Part shown: positions 9,143-62,213 of the stretch, piece by piece
Layout: each line of letters opens with the position of its first letter
Numbering within the stretch: the stretch's first letter is position 1
Source: an uncultured Spirochaetota bacterium
Lineage (GTDB): Bacteria; Spirochaetota; B62-G9; DRHN01
Reading direction: 5' to 3'
Assembly: GCA_964433545.1 (NCBI GenBank)
Contig: CAYSRJ010000002.1
Span: 37,020-101,019, forward strand
Length of the DNA: 64,000 nucleotides
The notes under the pieces: model-generated
Seen by the model: only the letters and a program-made list of their open reading frames with translations
What the model was told of the DNA's origin: nothing
Database searches by the model: none
Translations under genes and position numbers: made by a program

Positions 9143-10024
9143 CTATGTTTTCAATCTTGGGTCAAGAATATCCCGCAGGCCGTCTCCCAGCAGGTTGAGG
9201 CCTAACACCGAAAAAAGAATGGCAATACCGGGAAAAGTAGCCACCCACCATGCGCCGCTCACTATGTAGGAGTAACTTTTAGAGAGCATCGCTCCCCATT
9301 CAGGAGTTGGGGGCTGGGCTCCCAGGCCCAGAAAACCCAGCGCTGCACAGTCAAGAATTGCCGTCGCCAGCATCAGGGTTCCGTATACAATCACCGGTGC
9401 AACGCTGTTCGGTAGAACATGACGGAAAATAATCCGCAGGTTTCGTGAACCGAGCGCAGTCTGCACCTCTATATACTCCATTTCCTTGATGTAGAGTACC
9501 GAGCTCCTTATAATTCTCGCCATCTGCGGTGTGTATACAATACCGATAGCTATCATTGCTTTACTCAGCCCCTGGCCTATGATGGTCACGATGACGATTG
9601 CAAGAAGCAGCGCAGGGAATGCAAACATAATGTCGACGAATCTCATAATTGTTGCATCGACCCATCCCCCGAAATAGCCCGCGATTATTCCAAAGGTAAT
9701 GCCGAGTATCATTGCAATGCCAACGGCAACAAAACCTGCACTCAAACTGACCCTGGTTCCGTATATGATTCTGCTGAGAACACACCGTCCGAGGGCATCG
9801 GTTCCAAGCGGCTTGCCCTTCAGGCCTTCTGCGCTCCAGAAACCTGGTTTTAATTTATTGGCAAGATCGGGCGGTGAGGGAATGGGATCATTGGGCGCAA
9901 TGATGTTTGCGAAAATTGCACAGAGGATTAAAATAATGAGAATTACAAGACCGAACGTCGCGGACTTGTTGTATTTCAGCCGTCTTATTACTTCTGCGGC
10001 TCTGGTTTCTTTCTTCTTCTCCAT
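9143..10024 (-). CDS. oppC: Oligopeptide ABC transporter permease (OppC/DppC-like)
   Basis: 293 aa membrane protein of the BPD_transp_1 family; operon context. Confidence 0.85.
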   Translation of the reverse strand: MEKKKETRAAEVIRRLKYNKSATFGLVILIILILCAIFANIIAPNDPIPSPPDLANKLKPGFWSAEGLKGKPLGTDALGRCVLSRIIYGTRVSLSAGFVAVGIAMILGITFGIIAGYFGGWVDATIMRFVDIMFAFPALLLAIVIVTIIGQGLSKAMIAIGIVYTPQMARIIRSSVLYIKEMEYIEVQTALGSRNLRIIFRHVLPNSVAPVIVYGTLMLATAILDCAALGFLGLGAQPPTPEWGAMLSKSYSYIVSGAWWVATFPGIAILFSVLGLNLLGDGLRDILDPRLKT

Positions 10025-18739: not shown

Positions 18740-19364
18740 AAGTGTTGATGAATTTTACAATAATTTTTTAGTGTGATGGTAACGCTGATGCTGCATGTAT
18801 AGTGTGTTTTCGATTATAATCTCACGTTTTTTTATCGTTGCGCCCCCTTTTTTAAAATTGGTATGGATACATTCCTCTAAATTGCCTCGATGTGTGCCAA
18901 ATCAGTTAGACATACAAGATTAAACAGCGATGCATTGAAGCTATCCTTTGAGGATTGTACCGGCTTCTAAGTAACTTAGAACAAGTTGCTTTTTGATACT
19001 CGGCCGCGAAGTGGCTTTCCCCTAGGGGGACTTGCGCCACTTTGTTTTACTTGACCCGGTGCACTGCCGCTGTTAAATTCATTGCCGCAGCAGGAAACAG
19101 CGGGTAATACACAAAAGTTTCGTCGTATTACGGGACTATGTTAAAAAATTAACTATTATTTTAGTGAGACAAATCCTTATATATCTATTCTGCTTTTATG
19201 AAATTGTCAAGGATATTTTCTTTCAGAAGTGAATAAATATCGGGTGAGGTAATAATTATTGCAAGCCCGGGGAAATATTTAAATATTTGAAGAACGCCCT
19301 CAGCATGATAAACATTGTTCAGGTGAATACATAACCTTCATAGAGGCGACCACGGGCACAGATC

Positions 19365-25116: not shown

Positions 25117-25171
25117 TTGCAGGGGGCAGCCGCTTGAAAACCAATTATACTAGGAAAAAAGCGTCGTAATT

Positions 25172-25325
25172 CCTTGACAGGATACATCCCCCTGGGATAC
25201 ATCCCCCCGGGACTGAGTATCAGACAGTAACTTGCTCGAAGTTACTTAGAAGCGGTGTTCGTCCCTGTGGGACTGAGTATCGACGAGTAACTTTATAATT
25301 GAAGTTAATTAAAAAAGCCCGAAGG
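25172..25325 (+). repeat. Repeat family 2 copy (TTGACAGG module, 2 x 15-bp units, two GGGACTGAGTATC...AGTAACTT hairpin sub-units) in the hypE/eno convergent spacer
   Basis: ccttgacaggatacatccccctgggatacatccccccgggactgagtatcagacagtaacttgctcgaagttacttagaagcgg...gggactgagtatcgacgagtaacttt. Confidence 0.85.
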
Positions 25326-25396: not shown

Positions 25397-26749
<1,353 letters not shown>

Positions 26750-26888
26750 TTATCAAGAATTAATTTATCGCTGTTTTTACTACTGCCGGCATGCCTATGA
26801 TGAAGATACTTAAGATTAATAGGAACGCTTTCTGTACCGATAAATTAAAGGAAAACACGGCATTACGTCCGAACAGTATGAAGAGTAT

Positions 26889-28415: not shown

Positions 28416-28515
28416 TTACGAGAATATGTTTTTGCATTCATCACCTCTCAGAGAACTGGTTTTATGCTTGTCATCACCTTCATATTTACGTAGAATAAAA
28501 TAAAATTAAAAATCA

Positions 28516-30735
28516 ATGAAAAAGCTAAATATCACACCCAGCGCATTGTCGGATGCACGGAAGAAGTTATACTATTTTACTTTTTTAAACATCATCGCCT
28601 TTACCCTGCTCAGTGGAAACCTTATCACTCTATTTTCTTTGCGACTTGGCGCAGACAGTTTTTTAATTGGGATGCTCTCATTTTTTACCTACATAAGTTA
28701 CCTCTGTATGCTTATTGGGCGGTCTCTTGTTAAGAAATTCGGTGTTGTCGGTTTAATGGGGAGATTCTGGTTCGCACGTCATTTGATGATGCTGCCGATG
28801 CTTATCACTCCGCTGATAGCCGGGAAGGGCTACTACACCGCTGTTTATGCGGTAATCATTTTCAGCGTGCTCGGTTTCAGTGTATCCCGCGGAATTGCAA
28901 TTACAGGATACAATCCGGTAATCGGTGAGGTGACAACAGAAAAACAACGCGGCTATCTGCTTTCGCAGCTTCAGAAAATACAGCATGCAGCCACTCTTGT
29001 GGTCAGCATCATTATGGCCCTGGTTCTGGGAAAGCAGGCTCCTCTCTACAGGTATGTGCTCTTCATTATTACAGGAATCATCTGTGGCTCATTCGCCTCT
29101 TTCGTCTTTATGAAAATACCCGAACCGGATAATATCAGGGAAAATATATCGGAAAATTTATGGACGGGCTTTTTTCAGGCGCTTAAAAGAGCTTCGTTCA
29201 GAAAGTTCATTGTTATCCACTTTTTAATCTCCTTTGCAACATTCATGGTCTTTCCTTTTCTCATTGTTTATATAAAAAAGATATTCAATCAACCCGACAA
29301 CTTTATTCTTTTTTACACTGTTTTCGGGAGCCTGGGTGCTATTCTCATGGCACTTATCAGCGGATTTATGATCGACAGGCTCGGCGCCAAACCTCTTTAT
29401 TTTATCTTTTCAGGCATAATCCTGCTTGCCGTAATCCCGACTATTCTATCACCTGGAACAATACAGCCCGAATTTATATGGATATTCGCATCCGCGGTAT
29501 TTTTCTTTCACAATATGGGAAATTTTGGCGTTTTTAATGCTGGCCAGACATATTTTTTCTCAGCCATCAGGGCTGAAGAGAGCCTCAACCTGGGGGTTAT
29601 GTTCTTTCTGATCAGAGGGCTTGCAAGCGGGATCGGGGCATTGTCAGGAGGTATTATCCTCGAATGGCTCCAAAAGTTTCAATCCATTGGCACTGCTGAC
29701 GTTTTCAGGATATACTTCGGGTTTGTTGCCCTGATGTTCGGGTTTATCATGATACTCATTGCCAGGATGGAAAACCTGGGGGCCTATCCCATCCGTAATG
29801 CAATGGCAATAATCTTCTCTCCAAGGGAAATACGTACAGTCAGCCTGCTGAACAGGCTGGACCGGTCACAGACAGTTTCGGAAGAAAAGAGCGTAATCAG
29901 GGCACTTGGCGGATCGAAGTCGGAGCTGTCAATAGACGATATTCTGAACAAGCTTACATCTCCGCTGTTTACAATACGGAAAGAGGCTCTTTCAGCACTC
30001 AGCACTCTGCCGGTTGATAAAACCGTTATCAACGCTCTTATATCAGAGGTTAAAAACCACGCATTTACAACAGCATATATTGCAGCAGATATTATCGGGA
30101 AGAGAAAAATCAAAGAATCTAAAGCCGTACTCAGAAAACAGCTTTACTCAAAGGACTACATTTTGGGCGGTAAGTGTATGGTAGCTCTTGCGAATTTGAA
30201 TGACAGGAAAAGTCTTGGGGCTATCGAAGATATTATCAGGAAAACCAGGAATCCGGGTTTAATTGTGCATGGTGCTGCAGCTCTGTCAATATTCCATGAT
30301 CCGGCGTCGGTTCAAACACTTTTTGCCAAATTAAAAGAAAAAAACCAACCCTATATGCGGGACGAAATAATACTATCTATTGCGGGTATCCTTGGATTCG
30401 AAAAATGGTTCTATCCGGTCTATATTTCTTTTCTTGAAAACAGCACAACCGGAATTTCTCATTTAATCGATTTTCTGTCAGATAATCGGCCTCAGAAGCA
30501 GATTGTCGACCAGATTGAAAAATTGTATGCGAGCCTCCCAATAACCGGTCCATCTCAATTTTCAATGCTTGCAGAAAAACTGCTTCAACAGATAGCTGTA
30601 AAGCCGGAAGGCGCTGACATATCGCCTCTAATGCTATCGGCTGTTAAAGATGCAGGCCTTGCCAGGCTTGTACGCTTTCGTTTTCTTATTGCGGCAACAA
30701 TCACCTGGTTCGGTATAAGGAGACACCATACGTGA
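28516..30735 (+). CDS. MFS transporter fused to a C-terminal HEAT-repeat (PBS-lyase-like) domain
   Basis: 739 aa; about 12 predicted TM helices in the first 430 aa; C-terminal 300 aa with repeated ...ALGxxxxxxAIxxLIxxLxD... HEAT-like units. Confidence 0.65.
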   Translation: MKKLNITPSALSDARKKLYYFTFLNIIAFTLLSGNLITLFSLRLGADSFLIGMLSFFTYISYLCMLIGRSLVKKFGVVGLMGRFWFARHLMMLPMLITPLIAGKGYYTAVYAVIIFSVLGFSVSRGIAITGYNPVIGEVTTEKQRGYLLSQLQKIQHAATLVVSIIMALVLGKQAPLYRYVLFIITGIICGSFASFVFMKIPEPDNIRENISENLWTGFFQALKRASFRKFIVIHFLISFATFMVFPFLIVYIKKIFNQPDNFILFYTVFGSLGAILMALISGFMIDRLGAKPLYFIFSGIILLAVIPTILSPGTIQPEFIWIFASAVFFFHNMGNFGVFNAGQTYFFSAIRAEESLNLGVMFFLIRGLASGIGALSGGIILEWLQKFQSIGTADVFRIYFGFVALMFGFIMILIARMENLGAYPIRNAMAIIFSPREIRTVSLLNRLDRSQTVSEEKSVIRALGGSKSELSIDDILNKLTSPLFTIRKEALSALSTLPVDKTVINALISEVKNHAFTTAYIAADIIGKRKIKESKAVLRKQLYSKDYILGGKCMVALANLNDRKSLGAIEDIIRKTRNPGLIVHGAAALSIFHDPASVQTLFAKLKEKNQPYMRDEIILSIAGILGFEKWFYPVYISFLENSTTGISHLIDFLSDNRPQKQIVDQIEKLYASLPITGPSQFSMLAEKLLQQIAVKPEGADISPLMLSAVKDAGLARLVRFRFLIAATITWFGIRRHHT

Positions 30736-31304: not shown

Positions 31305-31817
31305 TCAGTAGCCCTTTTCTTTCAGCTCATTGAAGTGTTTTTTTGCAAGCTCATTGTCCTTGTCGACGGCCAGGAGATGCATATATGCCTTTTTTGCTTC
31401 AGTAAAATGCTGTGTCTTTTCATAGGTAACGGCAAGATTTGTGATGTAGAGCTTGTCTTCCGGTTTAAGAAGATACGCCTTCTCGAAGTAGGGAAGAGCT
31501 TTTTCATACATACCGAGATTTCCATACACAAGCCCCAGGGCTTCAAGAGCCTGATCATGATTCGGGCTGTACTTCAGGGTGAGCTCGAATTCCTCCACTG
31601 CCTTATCGTACTGTTGGGATTTTACGTAGCGTTTTCCGTCCTCATAGTGTTTTGTTGATTTGACATTGGCGCATCCCGCGAGCTGAAGCAAGAGGAGACC
31701 CGATAAAACTACTGTAAAACCAATGAATTTTCCTGCACGTTGTCGTTTCCGTATGTTCTGAGAGTTTGTACAGGCTGTCATGTTCAGGTCCCTTTCAAGA
31801 ATATGTTTTTTCCGCAT
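31305..31817 (-). CDS. TPR-repeat protein with N-terminal signal/membrane anchor
   Basis: 170 aa; hydrophobic N-terminus; 3-4 TPR units. Confidence 0.6.
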   Translation of the reverse strand: MRKKHILERDLNMTACTNSQNIRKRQRAGKFIGFTVVLSGLLLLQLAGCANVKSTKHYEDGKRYVKSQQYDKAVEEFELTLKYSPNHDQALEALGLVYGNLGMYEKALPYFEKAYLLKPEDKLYITNLAVTYEKTQHFTEAKKAYMHLLAVDKDNELAKKHFNELKEKGY

Positions 31818-31835: not shown

Positions 31836-31912
31836 TAAGATACATCTTGCAAAGATACATCTTGAAAAGATACATCTTGAAAAGATACATCTTGCAAAGA
31901 TACAATGTATGG
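31836..31912. repeat. Tandem 15-bp repeat (AAGATACATCTTGMA) x about 4.5, directly upstream of the TPR gene start
   Basis: Direct reading: aagatacatcttgcaaagatacatcttgaaaagatacatcttgaaaagatacatcttgcaaagataca; each unit holds the inverted repeat AAGAT-AC-ATCTT. Confidence 0.85.
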
Positions 31913-31964
31913 GGCGTAAAAAGAAATAAAAACGAGAGTTAGGAGACCGTTGGCCCCGGGTTTA

Positions 31965-33077
31965 CTACTGTATCTGTATCTTCCCCCTGCTGCTGCTATT
32001 AATGAGACTCGTGGTCTCCTGCCATCCTGCAGGAAAATCGGGGTCGTGTACGCGGCTTTGCCATTCAATGTACTGTTTTCGTTTGATATACCGGTACATC
32101 TGAAGCTGTCTTGGAGAGAGGAATTCACTGGGGTCCTCATCCAGAAAGAGGGCGTTGTTCACCATAATAGCCTGTTTTTCGGTCATAGGAACGAATCTAT
32201 AGATCGATTTTGAGAGATACCGTTTGTAGCTGGCCTTCCTGGGTGCCGGGACGAACGCATCCGCAGTAGTATCGACGACTTTTTTATCTGGCATGATGCC
32301 ATGAGCAGCGGTGCTCTGTTGTTCATTCATGGGAAAAGCTTCATTGATCAGATTGAGATCGAGCGATGATTTCAAGATGTCTTCGTAGCTGATTGCCGAA
32401 CCGTTGAATTCCAGGTACAGAGCCTCCTTATCACCGATATAACCGGGTTCGGTATAGACGATTCCATGTTCGATACCAAGCTCGACTTCACCCGACCAGA
32501 AGCAGTGCAATGTTATTACTGCTGATTCACGCTTTTCGGCCGCGTTGAATTCCTCATTCACCAGCTTAAGGTATACGGGTGCAGCCATTCCCTCCTGTTG
32601 AAGAGCATCGAGCATAATCCCGGTCAAATGCTTCATCCACGCCGCATCGTCTGAGTTTTTACTTTTTGGATGTCCATCGGTGCCGACTATACTCATTGCC
32701 GTGCCCGTTTTGGTGTCCCCGGGTAAAGAGAGGATGCTATGTTCAGCGGCAACGGCAGGAGAAACAGCAACCGGGATGAAATTCGACTCTATTGCTTCAA
32801 CGATAAGAGGATGACTTAAAATCTCGTTCCGTCGCACGGAAAGCACATCGTTTCCGGTATTACCCAGTATATACACGAGCATCGGTTTGTTTTCTTCCGC
32901 CATTTTCAGCAAAGCTGTGTTGTAGTCAGACAACCAGCGTACCCTCCCCAGGTTTTTATTGTTCAGGGCCGTTTCGGTTCTCAGGTGATCATTTTTATTT
33001 GAGGGAGCGATGCTGCTGCATGAGATTGAAAGTACAAGCAAGGCAGTAAGCACTGTAAAAACCAGTGTCTTTATCAT
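31965..33077 (-). CDS. Hypothetical secreted/lipoprotein-like protein
   Basis: 370 aa; N-terminal signal peptide (MIKTLVFTVLTALLVLSISCSS); no confident family assignment. Confidence 0.5.
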   Translation of the reverse strand: MIKTLVFTVLTALLVLSISCSSIAPSNKNDHLRTETALNNKNLGRVRWLSDYNTALLKMAEENKPMLVYILGNTGNDVLSVRRNEILSHPLIVEAIESNFIPVAVSPAVAAEHSILSLPGDTKTGTAMSIVGTDGHPKSKNSDDAAWMKHLTGIMLDALQQEGMAAPVYLKLVNEEFNAAEKRESAVITLHCFWSGEVELGIEHGIVYTEPGYIGDKEALYLEFNGSAISYEDILKSSLDLNLINEAFPMNEQQSTAAHGIMPDKKVVDTTADAFVPAPRKASYKRYLSKSIYRFVPMTEKQAIMVNNALFLDEDPSEFLSPRQLQMYRYIKRKQYIEWQSRVHDPDFPAGWQETTSLINSSSRGKIQIQ

Positions 33078-33261
33078 TTTAGCACCTCTCTGCTATATAA
33101 AATAATATCCAAAAGATATAAAATCAATAGTATATAGTTAGTATGGTTGCAATTTTCCAATTAGTTGATGCGTTCTGCATTACAGTGTTATTTTATGCTG
33201 CGTATCTTGGCGTGTCATGATTCTGTTTTTCTTAGAAATAAGCAGGTGAGCCTTCAACCTT

Positions 33262-33372
33262 AATAGGTTCAAGCCAATCGGGCTCGCGAATAAGTGTTTT
33301 TCCGTTGCAACTGCATAGCGAGCCCATTCTGACGGCCGAAGGCCGGAAGAACACTTGCCTAATGGTTTTTAC
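33262..33372 (+). repeat. Dispersed intergenic repeat family 1 (MITE/REP-like, about 110 bp), copy A
   Basis: About 85% identical to the copies at about 44209-44355 (reverse) and 54353-54485; internal 8-bp stem GGGCTCGC/GCGAGCCC and a GGCC-GAA-GGCC hairpin. Confidence 0.8.
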
Positions 33373-33447
33373 CTTAATTTATCAATTACTTTAAAAGCCA
33401 TGGAAAATTAAAGGACCATTGTTTTTTTAAAAATCTGGTACAAAATA

Positions 33448-35055
33448 TCAGTCTTTTAATAGATAAAACCATAATTTATACACAGCGGTCAGGAGAATAC
33501 CGAGTGCAATATAGTACCATACCCACAGAGGAAGACCCGCTGCCAGTACCGGAGTCTTCCCCCAGTTCCAGAAATCGTTTCCCAGAATAAAAATTAGGAC
33601 GAAAATCGGTATAAAGAAAAGTGATCCCCTTTTTATCCGAAATACAATATTTGTATTTTCGTTACTGACGCTCGTCAGGGCGCTTACGAATATAAACACA
33701 ACGCCGGTTGCGCTCAGTATGGGAATGACCGGGTGCAAGCCGGATATCTGTATTTTTTCGAAATAATAGGCTACCACCATGAATTCGCCGGTGAATATGC
33801 TTGCGATTGCGCCGAACTTGTTTGCTTTTTTCCAGTACAGGCCGCCTAAAACACAGGGACCGAGTACACTCAGACCGTTGAAGGTCGTCCTGCTGATAAA
33901 TGCAAGAATAGTATTCGGCGGTTTCAAGGCAATTAATAAGCTGACTGCGCCGATCACAATAATGGTGGTTTTTTCCTTTAATATTTCATTCTTCTCTACT
34001 TTGAGAAAATCGATGGTGATCATCGAAGTAAGAGTCAAGAGCTGGGAGTCCATTGTCGACATGAGCGCTGCGATGGCTCCGGTCAACAGGAGGGTGCTCA
34101 GGAAGGTGCTCGTATAGTTTCCAAGCAATAGCGGGAAAATGGTATCCGATCTGCCTGCCTCTAAAGCGGGAAATGCCGATCTTCCCATAACACCTATCGA
34201 TACGGTTAGGAAAAAAAGAAACGTGGTTATGATAGGGTAGAGGATCACCGTCGTGTGGAGGGTCTCGCGGTCCTTTGCAACCATGAAACGCTGAAAGAGC
34301 TGTGGAAACATTGGGTCCGCAAAGAACCAGAGCACCATGTAACCAATCCAGATTCCAAAGCCCATCGAACCGTTCATTCCCGGTCTTGAAAAGAGTGAAG
34401 GTGCATTGGAAAAAATAGTTTCATGCACGTGAATAAACCCTCCGCTTTTCCGGGCAATAATTATAAATGCGGTGAGTGTGAATACAATCATCAACACTCC
34501 CTGGAAAAAGTCCGTCCACACAATTGATCGGAGTCCGCCGAGCACCACATAGGTTACCACAAATCCGGTAATAAGAAGTGCTCCAGCGAGGTAGGGAATA
34601 CCGATAAGCGAATTGAGCGATTTCCCGCTCGCGATGGCCTGCAGGGAAATGTAGGGCAGTGTGAAAATAATCATTATCATGGAGAAGAGTTTTTTCAGGA
34701 AGGGTGAGTTGTACCGGTCCTGGATAAAATCCGAGGGAATTATGTAGTTCCTCTTTTTTGAAAGGATAAGGATTTTTTCTCCGATAACGATGAATGAAAG
34801 CGCCATGAATGCCGTTCCGAAGCCCATAACCGGATAGAATGAGTAACCGATTCTGTAGCCGGCGCCGGAAAAGCCGAATATCGTAAAGGCACTGAAGTTA
34901 GTCGCAGCCATTGTAAAGAAAAGGAGCATGCGGTTCAAATTACGGCCTGCAAGAAAGAATTCGACAGAACTGATCCGTGCGCTTTTTCGAAACAGCACAC
35001 CGATACCGAGCGTTGCGAGAAGATAAACCAGTACAATGGAAAGTTGTGTAATCAT
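33448..35055 (-). CDS. Sodium:solute symporter (SSS) family transporter
   Basis: 535 aa; 13-14 TM helices; SSS family sequence features. Confidence 0.8.
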   Translation of the reverse strand: MITQLSIVLVYLLATLGIGVLFRKSARISSVEFFLAGRNLNRMLLFFTMAATNFSAFTIFGFSGAGYRIGYSFYPVMGFGTAFMALSFIVIGEKILILSKKRNYIIPSDFIQDRYNSPFLKKLFSMIMIIFTLPYISLQAIASGKSLNSLIGIPYLAGALLITGFVVTYVVLGGLRSIVWTDFFQGVLMIVFTLTAFIIIARKSGGFIHVHETIFSNAPSLFSRPGMNGSMGFGIWIGYMVLWFFADPMFPQLFQRFMVAKDRETLHTTVILYPIITTFLFFLTVSIGVMGRSAFPALEAGRSDTIFPLLLGNYTSTFLSTLLLTGAIAALMSTMDSQLLTLTSMITIDFLKVEKNEILKEKTTIIVIGAVSLLIALKPPNTILAFISRTTFNGLSVLGPCVLGGLYWKKANKFGAIASIFTGEFMVVAYYFEKIQISGLHPVIPILSATGVVFIFVSALTSVSNENTNIVFRIKRGSLFFIPIFVLIFILGNDFWNWGKTPVLAAGLPLWVWYYIALGILLTAVYKLWFYLLKD

Positions 35056-35167
35056 TGTTCCCTCCTCGAAATTTGGTATATACCGGTCAAAGACAACAAA
35101 TTACTGAATTTGTTGAAACGTCAGGGTCACCCGGATTTCGGAACAGCGAGCTCATGATTACGAGTAA

Positions 35168-35205
35168 TTAAAAAAAGCCATCCGGACCGTGAGGGTCTGG
35201 ATGGC
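35168..35205 (-). terminator. Strong terminator-like hairpin (13-bp stem) with a U7 tail on the minus strand, inside the SSS transporter leader region
   Basis: AGCCATCCGGACC-GTGAG-GGTCTGGATGGCT; the minus strand reads the hairpin followed by TTTTTTT; no minus-strand CDS upstream. Confidence 0.5.
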
Positions 35206-35387
35206 TTTCACCTTGGCATAACCCGTTATTGTATTGTATACGTATAAGCGTATAACGTCAATTATTTTTATACTAATAGCGTATTGGAATGGAGTTGTTT
35301 ATTCATGATGCTCAGCGTAATCTGCTGATTGTAAGTACATGTTAAAAGCGACGTGAATCCCCCTGGGAATGTCGCTTCGCGGCCGAG

Positions 35388-35590
35388 CCTTGACAGGATA
35401 CATCCCCCCGGGATACATCCCCCCGGGATACATCCTCCCGGGAAACATCCCCCCGGGATACATCCTCCGGGGATACATCCTCCGGGGACTGAGTATCAAA
35501 CAGTAACTTGTGCGAAGTTACTTGGAAGCGGCCTACCTCCTGAGGGACCGAATATCATGAAGTAACTTCGCGAGAAGTTACTTAGAAGTA
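35388..35590 (+). repeat. Dispersed composite repeat family 2: TTGACAGG module + 6 x 15-bp tandem GGGATACATCCYCCS units + two AGTAACTT...AAGTTACT hairpin sub-units
   Basis: Direct reading; related copies at about 25172-25325, 48581-48700 (reverse), 62101-62213, and degenerate ones at about 18962-19045 and 50170-50265. Confidence 0.85.
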
Positions 35591-35673
35591 CGCACAGCCG
35601 GCAATTTAATAATTGACTGAATTTCAATTCCGGTATATTTTGATAAAACATAAATGCAGAGGGAGGTATATTA

Positions 35674-36300
35674 ATGGCGGATTTTAAAGGTATGGCAGAA
35701 GCCCTTATTGAGGGGAATGCCGGAAAGGTAAAAGAGCTCGTACAGGCGGCTGTTGATGAGAGTGTTGGACCGCAGAAGATACTTGATGAAGGCCTGATTT
35801 CCGGCATGGAGGTTGTTGGTGTGCGTTTCAAGAATTGTGAAATTTACGTGCCTGAGGTACTGGTCAGTGCAAGAGCTATGTCTGCGGGTATGGAAATACT
35901 GGAACCACTTCTTGCAAAAGCCGGTGCAAAATCCCGTGGTATTTTTGTTGTGGGAACGGTCAAAGGCGACCTGCACGACATAGGGAAAAACCTGGTTGCC
36001 ATGATGCTGAAGGGGGCAGGATGGAAGGTTGTGGATGCCGGCGTTGATGTTGATGCTGAGAAGTTTGTTCAAACGGCCATTGACGAAAATGCGGATGTAA
36101 TCGGACTGAGCGCATTGCTTACAACGACCATGGTAAATATGAAGCAGGTAATCGAGCTTGCCAAGAATAAAGACTGCAAATCAAAAATTGTTGTCGGTGG
36201 AGCGCCCCTTACGCAAAATTACGCCAATGAAATCGGTGCTGACGGTTATGCGCCGGATGCAGCGACCGCTGTTGAGGTTATCAATAGCCTCGTTTCATAA
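35674..36300 (+). CDS. Stand-alone corrinoid (cobalamin-binding) protein, MtaC/MtbC-like (B12-binding_2 cap + B12-binding Rossmann domain)
   Basis: 208 aa; DxHxxG cobalamin motif (GDLHDIGKNLV); no adjacent methyltransferase genes. Confidence 0.75.
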   Translation: MADFKGMAEALIEGNAGKVKELVQAAVDESVGPQKILDEGLISGMEVVGVRFKNCEIYVPEVLVSARAMSAGMEILEPLLAKAGAKSRGIFVVGTVKGDLHDIGKNLVAMMLKGAGWKVVDAGVDVDAEKFVQTAIDENADVIGLSALLTTTMVNMKQVIELAKNKDCKSKIVVGGAPLTQNYANEIGADGYAPDAATAVEVINSLVS

Positions 36301-44105: not shown

Positions 44106-44208
44106 CTCCCATACTCACCCCAAGTAGCCCATGTAAAAAAGATCAGCAGAAGGTGCTTTTTTCCTTACAATCGATGGTCCGACAATCCGCAATTATGGTT
44201 TTATCCAT

Positions 44209-44355
44209 TGGAATACCGGCATTCCATGTCGGAGAAGGCTGGTTCATCCGGCCTTCGGCCGTCAGAATGGGCTTGCTATTCAGTTGCAACGGAAAAACAC
44301 TTATCAGCGAGCCCGATTGGTTTGAACCTTTTTTGATTGAAAGTTAACTTGCCTA
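44209..44355 (-). repeat. Dispersed intergenic repeat family 1, copy B (reverse orientation) with the GGCAAGTTAACTTTCAAT end module and an alternative tail
   Basis: Reverse complement aligns to copy A (33262-33372) and to copy C; its tail (…GGATGAACCAGCCTTCTCCGACATGGAATGCCGGTATTCC) recurs in copy C at about 54578-54612. Confidence 0.8.
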
Positions 44356-44412
44356 TATACATTATGGGTACGGTGTACCTGGGATATTAACGGGGAAAGA
44401 GGGATTCTTATC

Positions 44413-48514: not shown

Positions 48515-48580
48515 ATATGGTTTTATCCATTAAAAGTCTAATAGTATGTATAAAGATTTACAATATACAATGGTCTTTTA

Positions 48581-48800
48581 CTTCTAAGTCACTTCTCGCG
48601 AAGTTACTTTATGATATTCGGTCCTTCGGGGATACATCCTGTCAAGGACGTAGACCACTTCCAAGTAACCTCGATTAAGTTACGTTTTGATACCTAGTCC
48701 TGCCAAGGACTAGTCGTGACAGAGATCGGCTGCGAAGTCGCCACTTTTCCTTGGCTCGTTAAGCATTGGGAAATTAAGGTAAAAACCATTAGGCAAGTGA
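48581..48800 (-). repeat. Repeat family 2 copy (reverse orientation) followed by the CTAGTCC-TGCCAA-GGACTAG hairpin and a family-1 tail fragment (AAAAACCATTAGGCAAGTG)
   Basis: Reverse complement of 48590-48655 matches 35545-35590 and 62139-62213 nearly base for base. Confidence 0.8.
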
Positions 48801-48943
48801 TAAATTGTATCTTTTAGAATTAACAAGCTAACGTACCTATTTTTTCAATTATTCTGTGTGCAAGTTTTTTTCCGGGATACTAATAAAGTAAAAAAAGTGT
48901 TACGGAAAATCAATCATTATTTGAAATACTGCTTGCATGTATA

Positions 48944-49000
48944 CCAAGGGCACAGGTACCAAGGGCACAGGTACCAAGGGCACAGGTACCAAGGGCACAG
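48944..49000. repeat. Tandem 15-bp repeat (AAGGGCACAGGTACC) x 4 immediately 3' of the TPR gene
   Basis: Direct reading: accaagggcacaggtaccaagggcacaggtaccaagggcacaggtaccaagggcacag. Confidence 0.85.
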
Positions 49001-49992: not shown

Positions 49993-50411
49993 GGAAAGTT
50001 GTTTTTTTTCATTTCTATTTTTCAGTGCACAAAGTGGGAAGGCTTCCGCAGCAGGTACCCCGTGTAAATTACCCCGCGCGATTTTAAATTTCCGTATGCC
50101 CTGCAGTCATAGTAACATATTCTGTAAAAATCTGTCAAATGGTTTAAATCCTTCTGGGCAACTTAAAATACGTTATCTGTGATACTTCATCCTGCCGGGG
50201 ATCTGCCGTGAAGTAACGTTCTCTGGGTGGATTCTCCCAGGGGGATCTACGTCACTTTTAAAACTCTTAATTGCGCCTGTATAGGTGTCGACTAGTATTA
50301 TAATGAGAGTATTGCTGCTCAAATAATACTCCAGCGATGCATACTGATTAATTAAAGGACTGTGATAGACTGTCGAGGGCACCAAGCCGGCATGCAGACT
50401 GAATACAAGGT

Positions 50412-54231: not shown

Positions 54232-54352
54232 CACTCAGGGGCGGAGGGGATAATTAAGGATTCTCGAATACGTTTTAGTTGACGTTGAATTTTTTTATCG
54301 TTATCTTTTTCCTATCCGGAAAATGGCTAAATCTTCTTTGAATAATACTATA

Positions 54353-54612
54353 GGCAAGTAAACTTTCAATTGTAGAAGACCAAACCGATCGGGCTCGTTG
54401 ATAAATGTTTTTCGTTACAACTACACAGGCGAACCCATTCTGACGGTAGAAGGTCGGAAGAACGCTTGCCTAAGGGTTTTTAGCGAAATTTGTCAATGCT
54501 TAATAGGCCGTGGACAGGAAAAGAGTTATTGTCTATTAAAAAAACCGGTATTAAGGATACCGGGGAATACTGGTACAAAACACCAGCCTTCTCCGGCATG
54601 GAATGTCGGTAT
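54353..54612 (+). repeat. Dispersed intergenic repeat family 1, copy C, with an 80-bp insertion carrying an A7-hairpin (CCGGTAT-TAAG-GATACCGG) before the tail module
   Basis: GGCAAGTAAACTTTCAAT...GGGCTCG...CCCATTCTGACGG...CTTGCC; the core aligns to copies A and B; the tail aligns to copy B. Confidence 0.8.
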
Positions 54613-54617
54613 TCTAA

Positions 54618-61317: not shown

Positions 61318-62106
61318 CTATCCCTCCTCCTCTCGCAGGCCTTTCAACCATGTGCCGTTGATTCTGATAAAAGTATGCTGCGGCTCGGGGAATTCCCGGC
61401 CCTCAAAAAATACATAAACATAGGCTTTATTCTGGTTGGCGAAAACCACCCGTGATATTTTCAAAGTCTTTATCTGCCCTTTTCTCCTCGTTTCAACAAG
61501 AAGGTTGAAAAAAGAATGGAGGTCTGCTGCATCCCACCCGTCATTGTGCAGGTTTTCGGGATTGCCGTACTTCTTTCTGTAATCCGGGGTTAACATGCCC
61601 TTCCACCCTTCAAAGTCATCCTTTTCATACATTTCCTCGAGCTTGTTGATAATCTCGAGTATGTTCTCTGCTTCATGTTTTGCTTCTCCAGCGTCAATTG
61701 CAGTAGAGACATTATCACTTTCGGGCAGTACGACTTCTATTTTCGAATCCTGTTCGGGGACTGAGATGGTTAATTCTTCCGTGTTTTCCATGTTGGTATT
61801 ATCGGCGGCAACTTCAGTCCCGGCGGGTTCTTTCTGCTTTATTTCAACCTGAGTTTGTTCCAAAGGCTCCCGGGTGGATTTATGTTCTGAAGGCTTCTCT
61901 TCAACACCTGACGGCCCCTGTTGCTGGTAATCAAACTGCACAGATTTTTTTCCTGAACAGCCGGTTATAAAAAGTACCGCACATGCGGTGAGCAGAAGGC
62001 ACCCTCGTATATTCTGAAATTTATTCATCATTATATAAGGAATTTTAACAACTTCTCCTTTTTTTTCAATATCTTTCTCCTCCTGCGAATAAGGGAGGTG
62101 TATCAA
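61318..62106 (-). CDS. Hypothetical lipoprotein
   Basis: 262 aa; lipobox FITGC after a hydrophobic h-region; acidic low-complexity linker. Confidence 0.5.
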   Translation of the reverse strand: MIHLPYSQEEKDIEKKGEVVKIPYIMMNKFQNIRGCLLLTACAVLFITGCSGKKSVQFDYQQQGPSGVEEKPSEHKSTREPLEQTQVEIKQKEPAGTEVAADNTNMENTEELTISVPEQDSKIEVVLPESDNVSTAIDAGEAKHEAENILEIINKLEEMYEKDDFEGWKGMLTPDYRKKYGNPENLHNDGWDAADLHSFFNLLVETRRKGQIKTLKISRVVFANQNKAYVYVFFEGREFPEPQHTFIRINGTWLKGLREEEG

Positions 62107-62213
62107 ACAGTATCTTGATCGATGTTACATAGAAGCGGTCTACATCCTTGACAGGATGTATCCCTGGGGGATCGAATATCGCAAAGTAACTTCGCGAGAA
62201 GTTACTTAGAAGA
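62101..62213 (+). repeat. Repeat family 2 copy (sub-unit a'-TTGACAGG module-sub-unit b)
   Basis: CCTTGACAGGATGTATCCCTGGGGGATCGAATATCGCAAAGTAACTTCGCGAGAAGTTACTTAGAAG, nearly identical to the reverse complement of 48590-48655. Confidence 0.85.

Follow-up and report, generated by a model that had tools for sequence, protein, structure and literature searches.

The BOX elements of Streptococcus pneumoniae, which are present in more than 100 copies, are composed as boxA-boxB(n)-boxC with a tandemly repeated internal module. No dedicated transposase of BOX is known. For another group of small dispersed repeats, the CGTC-type repetitive extragenic palindromes (REPs) including the Neisseria dRS3/NIME sequences, Di Nocera et al. 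(2013) did not detect a dedicated transposase either, and they name Spirochaetes among five phyla in which CGTC-tagged REPs were reported (PMC3733652). The subject of the present work is a repeat family in 64,000 nucleotides of DNA of an uncultured Spirochaetota bacterium (contig CAYSRJ010000002.1; the whole stretch is called the window in the following). One copy of the family (35388-35590, hereafter the flagged copy) had been singled out in a sequence-only reading, which described it as a mosaic of short modules and hairpins. We consider it probable, though by no means certain, that the family consists of dispersed non-coding, non-autonomous hairpin repeats of the type of REPs, bacterial interspersed mosaic elements (BIMEs) and BOX. 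Its main peculiarity is that the ~65-base unit is shared with an order of bacteria that is not related to the host. The repeat family is new, whereas its kind, dispersed intergenic hairpin repeats, is already known; the nearest families were compared by description. A literature search by sequence words and organism yielded no description of this family.

Copies of the repeat family in the window

Six intergenic loci of one repeat family were identified in the window, comprising nine units with scores above chance and one degenerate copy. A covariance model trained on 81 aligned units and applied to the window gave the highest score for a unit at 35522-35588 (+) within the flagged copy (72.2 bits, E 1e-14), followed by units at 25186-25252 (+, 68.2 bits), 62145-62212 (+, 64.2 bits), 48581-48648 (-, 54.9 bits), 18964-19030 (-, 51.6 bits), 48658-48725 (-, 36.6 bits) and 35462-35521 (+, 32.9 bits) and by two decayed units at 25253-25315 (+, 30.7 bits) and 62063-62135 (+, 24.2 bits). 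The copy at 50150-50265 (-) reached only 9.4 bits and was recognized by eye as a decayed unit with a long 5' hairpin module. Chance can be excluded as the origin of the family, since the expectations derived from shuffled controls lie far below the matches observed in the window. The pattern AGTAACTT-N6-AAGTTACT with up to two mismatches was encountered three times (0.05 expected), and GGATACATCC with up to one mismatch 16 times (3.9 expected). By repeat finding, the copies were recovered as the families D1, D2, D5 and D9 and as the inverted pairs I2, I4, I5 and I6. The family makes up ~1.5% of the window, corresponding to roughly one locus per 10 kb, and the orientation of the loci along the window is mixed (-,+,+,-,-,+).

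Sequence inspection and repeat finding revealed all of the four clear and two degenerate copies listed in the sequence-only reading at or near the positions given there, and every module that it named was found in the window copies. While the loci were thus correctly placed, their extents have to be revised: the flagged copy begins at ~35342 and not at 35388, the copy at 48581 reaches to ~48760, and the copy assigned to 62101 begins at ~62063.

Structure of the repeat unit

Alignment of the 81 units defined a unit of ~60-65 nt which consists, from 5' to 3', of the start G(T/C)G(G/A)CG, a first hairpin (P1), the sequence GARTATCA, a second hairpin (P2) and the end TTARAAG. P1 is rich in G+C and variable in sequence between copies; the GARTATCA stretch separating it from P2 is conserved and single-stranded. 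P2 is a hairpin of 8-10 bp with a fixed sequence, in which 4-8 nt of loop separate the arms AGTAACTT and AAGTTACT. Immediately 5' of P2, four bases vary (AAAC, CATA, CATG, AAGG, CGTT and others), and the tail reads TAGAAG or CAGAAG. The 3' boundary is abrupt, as 61 array ends did not disclose any conservation beyond TTARAAG. Units are arranged head to tail on the same strand with a period of 60-61 nt, for example at 35462/35522 in the window and in the three units of locus L002. The units fall into three recurrent subtypes. Subtype A contains ...GAGTATCAAACAG... and the loop GCTCG, subtype B contains ...GAATATCATAAAG... and the loop GCGA, and a variant is characterized by the arm GATAACTT; their order is usually A or the variant, followed by B.

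The copies are mosaics of one to three head-to-tail units and extra P1-type hairpins, which are represented by the 15-mer array, the 'TTGACAGG' hairpin and the long 5' hairpin. Each 15-mer corresponds to one half of a P1-type hairpin (ATCC-loop-GGAT), iterated along the array. The sequence 'TTGACAGG' comprises the loop plus the 3' arm of a P1-type hairpin, whose loop elsewhere reads TTGGCA, TTTACA, CTGGCA or CTGGCG; what had been taken for a fixed module is therefore a short hairpin in one of its loop variants (YTGRCR). A larger hairpin (AAGYGRCG...CGYCRCTT), which is able to enclose inner hairpins, constitutes the long 5' module.

The unit alignments revealed that the pairs of P1 covary. At one position, 64 units have a U-A pair and 28 a C-G pair, and 98 double-change cells were counted compared to 42 in shuffles. 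Likewise, the outer stems of the long hairpin occur as GTGAC/GTCAC, GCGAC/GTCGC and GTGGC/GCCAC. In P2, the eight inner pairs are essentially invariant, and variation is confined to the basal pair, which is A-U in the spirochaete units and G-C in the units of Syntrophales described below. As the pattern used for the first collection of units had a fixed P2, sampling was repeated with an anchor restricted to the 5' half, leaving P2 free. Most of the 80 Syntrophales-type units obtained in this way possess an identical P2, and the variants (GAGAAACTT, GAATAACTT, GAGCAACT and others) are one-sided and break pairs. Thus, P1 must be a hairpin, while P2 must be this particular hairpin. The invariance of P2 is the pattern expected if a protein reads P2 together with its flanks. 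The compensatory substitutions by which the sequence-only reading had proposed to check the hairpins are present in P1, whereas P2, apart from its basal pair, decays with broken pairs.

Distribution in Spirochaetota and Syntrophales

The distribution of the unit was scanned with one genome per species, and the figures given here refer to the matches listed. The sequence-only reading would have had to be abandoned if no further copies existed outside the window; in fact, a single metagenome-assembled genome (MAG) of an uncultured member of the Spirochaetota, CAZGJW01, contains more than 50 loci with the pattern among the matches listed. Where this MAG and the window overlap, they are 88-93% identical, and the window accordingly stems from a close relative of CAZGJW01. 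When the covariance model was applied to related loci with a total length of 525 kb, it detected 107 units. Moreover, the corrinoid protein encoded in the window was found in identical copies on at least 24 metagenome contigs. Two further Spirochaetota MAGs possess a few units among the matches listed, as do at least ~15 MAGs of Syntrophales, Smithella and Syntrophus, in which the units lie on differing contigs and in differing gene contexts. The Syntrophales units agree with the spirochaete units in their layout and in P2 and have a different P1 and 5' part (AATAGCGACyCACGCCC-loop-GGGCG-nTTTATC...CAGAAG). Pattern matches in the remaining taxa lack P1 and the tail and are attributable to chance.

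Close relatives without the family exist as well. A relative with ~78% nucleotide identity, which is fully syntenic over 22 kb and whose corrinoid protein is 96% identical, does not contain any unit in this span; the same span harbors two loci in the window and a third one in the MAG. Units are also missing in two more distantly related sequences, namely in GCA_964347455 and in a contig whose corrinoid protein is identical to that of Spirochaetes bacterium DG_61. The family had been suggested to be lineage-specific. This holds true insofar as close relatives lack it, but not with regard to the homologous unit in a second phylum. Viral contigs yielded no match (0) to the pattern, and a phage or virus origin was rejected.

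IS110-family elements in the Syntrophales units

IS110-family insertion sequences (ISs) are documented to insert into REPs (PMC1525189; PMC11208160), and 144 of 173 IS621 insertions were located in REPs (PMC11208160). A similar relationship was observed in the Syntrophales. Of the 80 Syntrophales-type loci, ~17 have a unit that breaks off behind the 5' arm of P2. At five loci (L102, L104, L119, L156 and L169), this arm is followed by ~270 nt of non-coding DNA, an open reading frame (ORF) of 430 aa and then the remainder of the unit, i.e., its 3' arm and tail. The ORF product contains the Pfam domains DEDD_Tnp_IS110 (PF01548, 5e-22) and Transposase_20 (PF02371, 6e-14). Hence, IS110-family elements sit exactly in the P2 loop of these units, with the junctions GAGTAACTTG|TTGTTTGG on the left and ATATTGTT|AAGTTACTCAGAAG on the right, and at L104 and L156 two adjacent units are each occupied by such an element. 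Neither in the window nor in the spirochaete loci was an IS110-type ORF found. The behavior of REPs as targets of the IS110 family is consequently seen only in the Syntrophales homologues, and the idea of a recombination hotspot, put forward in the sequence-only reading, receives indirect support from them. A derivation of the units from the non-coding (bridge-RNA) region of IS110 elements was discarded: the shared TTTATCA and TCAGAAG motifs score 21-23, which is not above the shuffled controls (18.6 +/- 3.2).

Insertion, instability and decay of copies

Two sites could be compared in a filled and an empty state. At MAG locus L029, a two-unit insertion of ~150 nt lies between the gene corresponding to 25397-26686 (enolase according to the Pfam annotation of the L090 homologue) and a TPR gene, and is missing from the window at 26850. 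The empty site reads ATTAAAG GAAAACAC, the filled one ATTAAAA(GTGGAC...ACTTAAAAG)AACACAT, with the insertion in parentheses. The second site is that of the 48581 copy, which splits another repeat, as a comparison with 33200-33520 showed; an uninterrupted copy of that repeat lies at 33200-33480. Read along the element, GGAAAA^TTAAAGG is the empty and GGAAAA(GTGGCG...CTTAGAAG)TAAAAG the filled state. At both sites (n=2, both A-tracts), there is neither a target duplication nor a terminal inverted repeat.

The repeat that is split belongs to a second, unrelated dispersed family of ~170-240 nt without Rfam match, two copies of which are 87% identical over 115 nt. Its copies are located at 33238-33476 (-), 44191-44356 (+), 48516-48583 plus 48765-48799 (+, the copy split by the hairpin element) and 54349-54617 (-). 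They may represent a common 5' region, a mobile element or an RNA. Apart from the repeats, the window contains two segments without counterpart in L029, which is otherwise 90-93% identical: 31945-33350 (~1.4 kb) with an ORF of 370 aa (31965-33077), for which only a weak thioredoxin-like match was obtained, and 28445-29467 (~1 kb) inside an ORF of 739 aa (28516-30735).

Presence and absence of copies also differ between orthologous spacers. The flagged copy is missing from that of three relatives, and the second locus of the window (25159-25325) is missing from the 82-nt orthologous spacer of L090/L093. The 15-mer array of the flagged copy comprises five or six copies in otherwise identical metagenome contigs from different strains of one organism. 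Between the unit at 18964 and its orthologue at MAG locus L013, P1 differs by an internal indel of 22 nt and P2 by changes that are unpaired, indicating that old copies decay. In L090, the region 9720-9900, which is orthologous to ~35300-35600 of the window, contains different, perfect hairpins, e.g. ACATTATCCGGAC-ACTTCGC-GTCCGGATAATGT, and the flagged spacer may collect hairpin repeats of different families.

Organization of the individual loci

The flagged copy starts with the long-hairpin module at 35342-35387 (+; AAAAGCGACGTGAATCCCCCTGGGAATGTCGCTT plus CGCGGCCGAG), which upon folding forms an interrupted stem of 13 bp and lies outside the borders originally assigned to the copy. A 'CCCAGGGGG' module, reported as a related sequence, is real but is nothing other than this 5' end (CCCAGGGGG.../AAAAGYGACG...) read on the other strand, as CCCAGGGGG...CACTTTT. 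The long 5' module is also present in reverse at 50235-50261 (inverted pair I14) and in many MAG copies. It is followed by a short P1-type hairpin at 35388-35405 (+, CCTTGACAGGATACATCC), the loop of which reads TTGACA by chance, as judged from sequence and fold. The tandem array of the 15-mer GGATACATCCCCCCG extends over 35396-35488 (+) and consists of iterated P1 half-hairpins. Tandem Repeats Finder (TRF) detected 6.2 copies here (score 144) and 2.2 copies at 25180-25212, which bears out the 15-bp tandem units seen from the sequence. The array overlaps with a unit of subtype A (35462-35521, +) that, according to covariance model and alignment, is composed of P1, GAGTATCAAAC, P2 (AGTAACTT-GTGCG-AAGTTACT) and TTGGAAG. 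Covariance model and fold assigned the adjoining unit (35522-35588, +) to subtype B, with P1 (CTCC-TGA-GGGA), CCGAATATCATG, P2 (AAGTAACTTC-GCGA-GAAGTTACTT) and AGAAG. Folded as DNA, the element of 253 nt (35340-35592) reaches -51 kcal/mol with a z value of -5.4, in line with the hairpins that had been proposed for its sub-units.

The second locus (25159-25325, +) contains a hairpin module, 2.2 copies of the 15-mer, a unit A (25186-25252) and a decayed unit (25253-25315); it occupies the convergent spacer between the gene of an AIRS-domain protein and the gene 25397-26686. At the third locus (48581-48760, -), which is located upstream of a GreA-domain gene and within a copy of the different repeat family, the 5' module, a variant unit (48658-48725), a TTGACAGG hairpin and a unit B (48581-48648) succeed one another. 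The fourth locus (62063-62213, +) harbors a decayed unit (62063-62135), a TTGACAGG hairpin and a unit B (62145-62212) and is antisense to both neighboring genes. The 62063 and 48581 copies are 86% complementary over 113 nt (inverted pair I2). The fifth locus (18964-19045, -) has only one unit, of subtype A, in which P1 is long (AAGTGGCGCAAGTCCCCCTAGGGGAAAGCCACTT) and one arm of P2 is mismatched (AGCAACTT), whereas the sixth (50150-50265, -) consists of the long 5' hairpin module and the decayed unit GAAGTATCACAGATAACGTATTTTAAGTTGCCCAGAAGG (inverted pairs I14 and I18).

Three other short tandem arrays were noted in the window. An array of 4.5 copies of a 15-mer with the palindrome AAGATGTATCTT (31837-31904) immediately precedes the TPR gene, which starts at 31817, and has the core GATGTATC in common with GGATGTATCC of the hairpin element. 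Perfect copies of TACCAAGGGCACAGG are repeated 3.9 times at 48942-49000, and a 17-mer 2.8 times at 184-230.

Relation to neighboring genes

All copies of the window are intergenic and were found in either orientation relative to genes. The neighboring genes are functionally unrelated and code for AIRS-domain, SSF transporter, corrinoid, GreA-domain, NeuB, Nuo51-domain and CobW-domain proteins. Classifying the spacers of the spirochaete arrays by crude ORF-based gene calls, 21 sense and 12 antisense cases were counted in co-directional spacers, 11 arrays fell into divergent and 6-7 into convergent spacers, and no strict strand rule relative to genes emerged. One two-unit element of the MAG is inserted in sense orientation between genes identified by eye as L23-like and L2-like ribosomal protein genes. 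Since the L23-L2 spacer is normally co-transcribed, the element is tolerated inside such a region.

The flagged copy is situated upstream of a promoter-like sequence, TTGAC(T/C)-N17-TAT(A/T)(A/T)T, that is kept in all compared relatives. It is the only promoter-like site on the plus strand in the region 35050-35700 and is located at 35613-35641, downstream of the element. Inside the flagged copy, no promoter signal was detected, nor was a terminator-like site in 35050-35700. Given that internal signals are missing and that TTGACA is one among several variants of a hairpin loop, an identity of the element as promoter or terminator was rejected, and the earlier view that the copies are not simply promoters is upheld. 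The search of Rfam, which had been recommended at the same time, was negative: Rfam 15 gave 0 matches at the gathering score in the whole window, and when E values up to 10 were admitted, the element and a Syntrophales unit produced nothing beyond chance-level matches.

Downstream of the flagged copy, the gene at 35674-36300 encodes a B12-binding corrinoid protein (PF02607, PF02310), of which uncultured Spirochaetota possess thousands of close homologues. In one relative (L086), the corrinoid gene adjoins genes for a URO-D-type methyltransferase and for a microcompartment. A further hairpin, bordered by an A-run and a T-run (AAAAAAGCCATCCGGAC...GTCTGGATGGCTTT), is located at ~35171-35209 in the spacer that separates the divergent genes of the SSF transporter and the corrinoid protein. 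This hairpin is conserved in three related species without the repeat element; its shape resembles that of a bidirectional terminator, which is unexpected at this place.

Discussion

How might the units have been dispersed? According to the reading that we prefer, a protein acting in trans probably inserts new units in the form of single-stranded hairpin DNA and would recognize the invariant P2 and its flanks. The likeliest candidate is an HUH/tyrosine transposase of the kind of the REP-associated tyrosine transposases (RAYTs) or of the IS200/IS605 family. An HUH-type single-strand insertion is suggested by the invariant hairpin with its conserved flanks, the sharp 3' end, the lack of a duplication at an A-rich motif and the tandem units on the same strand. 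The A-rich sequence ...AAA(A)G appears to mark the site beside which insertion takes place. As the 3' end of every unit, TTARAAG, resembles this target, head-to-tail arrays would follow. Replication slippage may then expand and contract the 15-mers, and effects on neighboring genes by mRNA folding or supercoiling would be secondary.

A number of observations do not fit well with such an enzyme. Among all ORFs of the window and of ~170 loci (~1.1 Mb of unit-bearing DNA), phmmer did not reveal any transposase of the RAYT or IS200-type Y1 kind, no match falling below E 0.02; the two queries, YafM-like and IS608 TnpA-like, were approximate sequences, which distant RAYT groups could escape. All-against-all clustering of ORFs did not uncover a multi-copy transposase family near the units either. 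ORFs between oppositely oriented units (L031, L027 and L024) are housekeeping by inspection (rubrerythrin-like, ABC transporter-like, MnmA-like and FdhD-like), as are the neighbors in the window. The units do not carry a GTAG or CGTC tag at the stem and are joined head to tail instead of forming inverted dimers. IS200/IS605 elements show a strong replication-strand bias, which the mixed orientation in the window does not suggest. Furthermore, the insertion site was deduced from only two pairs of filled and empty sites, each ambiguous by 1-4 nt, and a recent amplification, instead of a protein that recognizes the hairpin, could account in part for the invariance of P2. It is conceivable that the two-hairpin unit defines a separate REP-like superfamily, which would be shared horizontally by Syntrophales and some Spirochaetota and spread by an enzyme other than a flanking RAYT, adding units head to tail at A-rich sites that resemble the 3' end of the unit, i.e., a self-extending system of hairpin cassettes. 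This extension is tentative and we hold it to be rather doubtful.

Alternatively, the units might be structured RNA elements that are selected in transcripts, be it for mRNA stabilization or processing, for translational control or as a small-RNA family, and that owe their abundance to repeated recruitment instead of selfish spread. The covariation of P1, the sense element between the L23-like and L2-like genes, the mild excess of sense cases in co-directional spacers and several Syntrophales units ending directly in a Shine-Dalgarno-like AGAAGGAG followed by ATG are in agreement with this explanation. However, an Rfam family was not found even at E up to 10, an antisense orientation was seen in 12 of the 33 co-directional cases and, with respect to both of its neighbors, in the 62063 copy. 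In addition, the flagged copy precedes the conserved promoter of the downstream gene without possessing a promoter or terminator of its own, P2 variants break pairs, orthologous copies decay, the adjacent genes have no function in common and close relatives do without units. A selected RNA therefore seems improbable to us, and the small-RNA family considered in the sequence-only reading in particular lacks an Rfam match, a consistent strand, a promoter and a terminator, and its P2 decays rather than compensates.

The two invariant inverted arms of P2 (8-9 bp), conserved across two phyla, could also be read as a double-stranded palindromic site for a dimeric DNA-binding protein, such as a nucleoid-associated protein, a global regulator or a recombinase (as its core site), and the arrays of the 15-mer GATACATC as iterated sites, given that 15-bp arrays including the separate one at 31837-31904 have a GAT(A/G)(C/T)ATC core. 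Yet units that are otherwise intact have P2 arms spaced by anything between 4 and 8 nt, which is tolerable for a hairpin loop but not for a rigid dimer site, and the pairing of P1 is kept while its sequence changes. The occurrence of copies in spacers of all kinds, those between convergent gene ends among them, and their presence or absence between near relatives speak against a conserved regulatory site as well, making this explanation highly improbable.

The least credible proposal is that of classical miniature inverted-repeat transposable elements (MITEs), i.e., an internally deleted DDE insertion sequence moved via terminal inverted repeats, since the copies, though small, intergenic, numerous, stably folded and polymorphic in presence, have ends (GYGRCG... 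and ...GAAGTTACTTARAAG) that are not mutual inverted repeats, lack a target-site duplication at the two sites with an empty counterpart, so that the term MITE suggested earlier is not supported in its strict sense, differ by whole modules without fixed common ends and have no transposase-like multi-copy ORF in their flanks, the sole IS found (IS110 family, Syntrophales) using the unit as target and having ends unrelated to it.

Some other identities were considered and rejected. By eye, the core does not fit the GTTRRRY of an integron attC site, GGA motifs lying in stems and copies on both strands do not match a CsrA sponge, and unique spacers as in CRISPR are missing. There was no Rfam signal of a self-cleaving ribozyme. 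A pairing of TATC with RAAG, in the manner of guide and cleavage site in IS608, was regarded as a mere analogy and set aside.

The repeats have some practical bearing. One MAG contig, that behind L029, ends close to a repeat locus, and the repeats may therefore limit assembly and binning of this spirochaete lineage. As a source of variable-number markers, they could serve to track strains. The unit common to Syntrophales and Spirochaetota provides a handle on the old question of the origin and movement of those REP-like repeats that, like CGTC REPs and BOX, have no transposase in their neighborhood. Being a natural landing site of the IS110 family, the Syntrophales unit is moreover an example of a target of an RNA-guided (bridge/seek RNA) recombinase outside the Proteobacteria.

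Comparison with known repeat systems

The resemblance to BIME/REP and BOX noticed in the sequence-only reading is well founded in structural terms, as the copies are intergenic, hairpin-rich, modular, variable in copy number and lineage-restricted, with a presence differing between close relatives. P2 and its flanks (~35 nt) correspond to the broad definition of a REP as an imperfect palindrome of 20-40 bp in many extragenic copies. Like REPs, BIMEs and REPINs, the units are short imperfect palindromes with conserved unpaired flanks, numerous, intergenic and restricted to lineages. With REPs and BIMEs, they share the formation of mosaics with other short motifs and, in the Syntrophales sister family, the role as targets of the IS110 family. 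On the other hand, the tag of GTAG and CGTC REPs abuts the stem, whereas the units described here have no tag and a conserved TATC 3-4 nt away from the stem. REPINs are inverted dimers, in contrast to the head-to-tail units of this family; head-to-tail REP dimers are described as negligible (PMC3733652). Moreover, each unit contains two hairpins, one free and one fixed in sequence, and contrary to the REP-RAYT system the approximate queries did not hit any RAYT in ~1.1 Mb of flanks. The mosaic character is common to the BIMEs of E. coli, which are further characterized by linker motifs and by binding of IHF or gyrase, and the alternating orientation of which was not encountered. As regards CGTC REPs, stems of 8-9 bp starting with A-T pairs, loops of 4-5 nt, a short unpaired tail and some large clusters or mosaics are similar. 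They possess a tag (CGTC/TGTC/CCTC) and a CCA tail, both of which are absent here, where the tail is TAG(A)AG and the dimer orientation differs; this separation is based on the class description. The ends of IS200/IS605 elements and of their gene-less derivatives, the palindrome-associated transposable elements (PATEs), are comparable in having two similar subterminal hairpins in the same orientation (here unit A followed by B), a defined 3' end a few nt past the hairpin and an insertion at a short motif without duplication (two sites here). They are distinguished from the present family in that here neither TnpA nor TnpB was found, the number of units ranges from one to three and the orientation in the window is mixed. 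BOX is alike in architecture only, namely in its modular composition, variable tandem module, strong folding, intergenic location and more than 100 copies. Its host phylum is unrelated, and so presumably is its sequence, while the family described here is built around a two-hairpin core that ends in TTARAAG and is shared with a second phylum.

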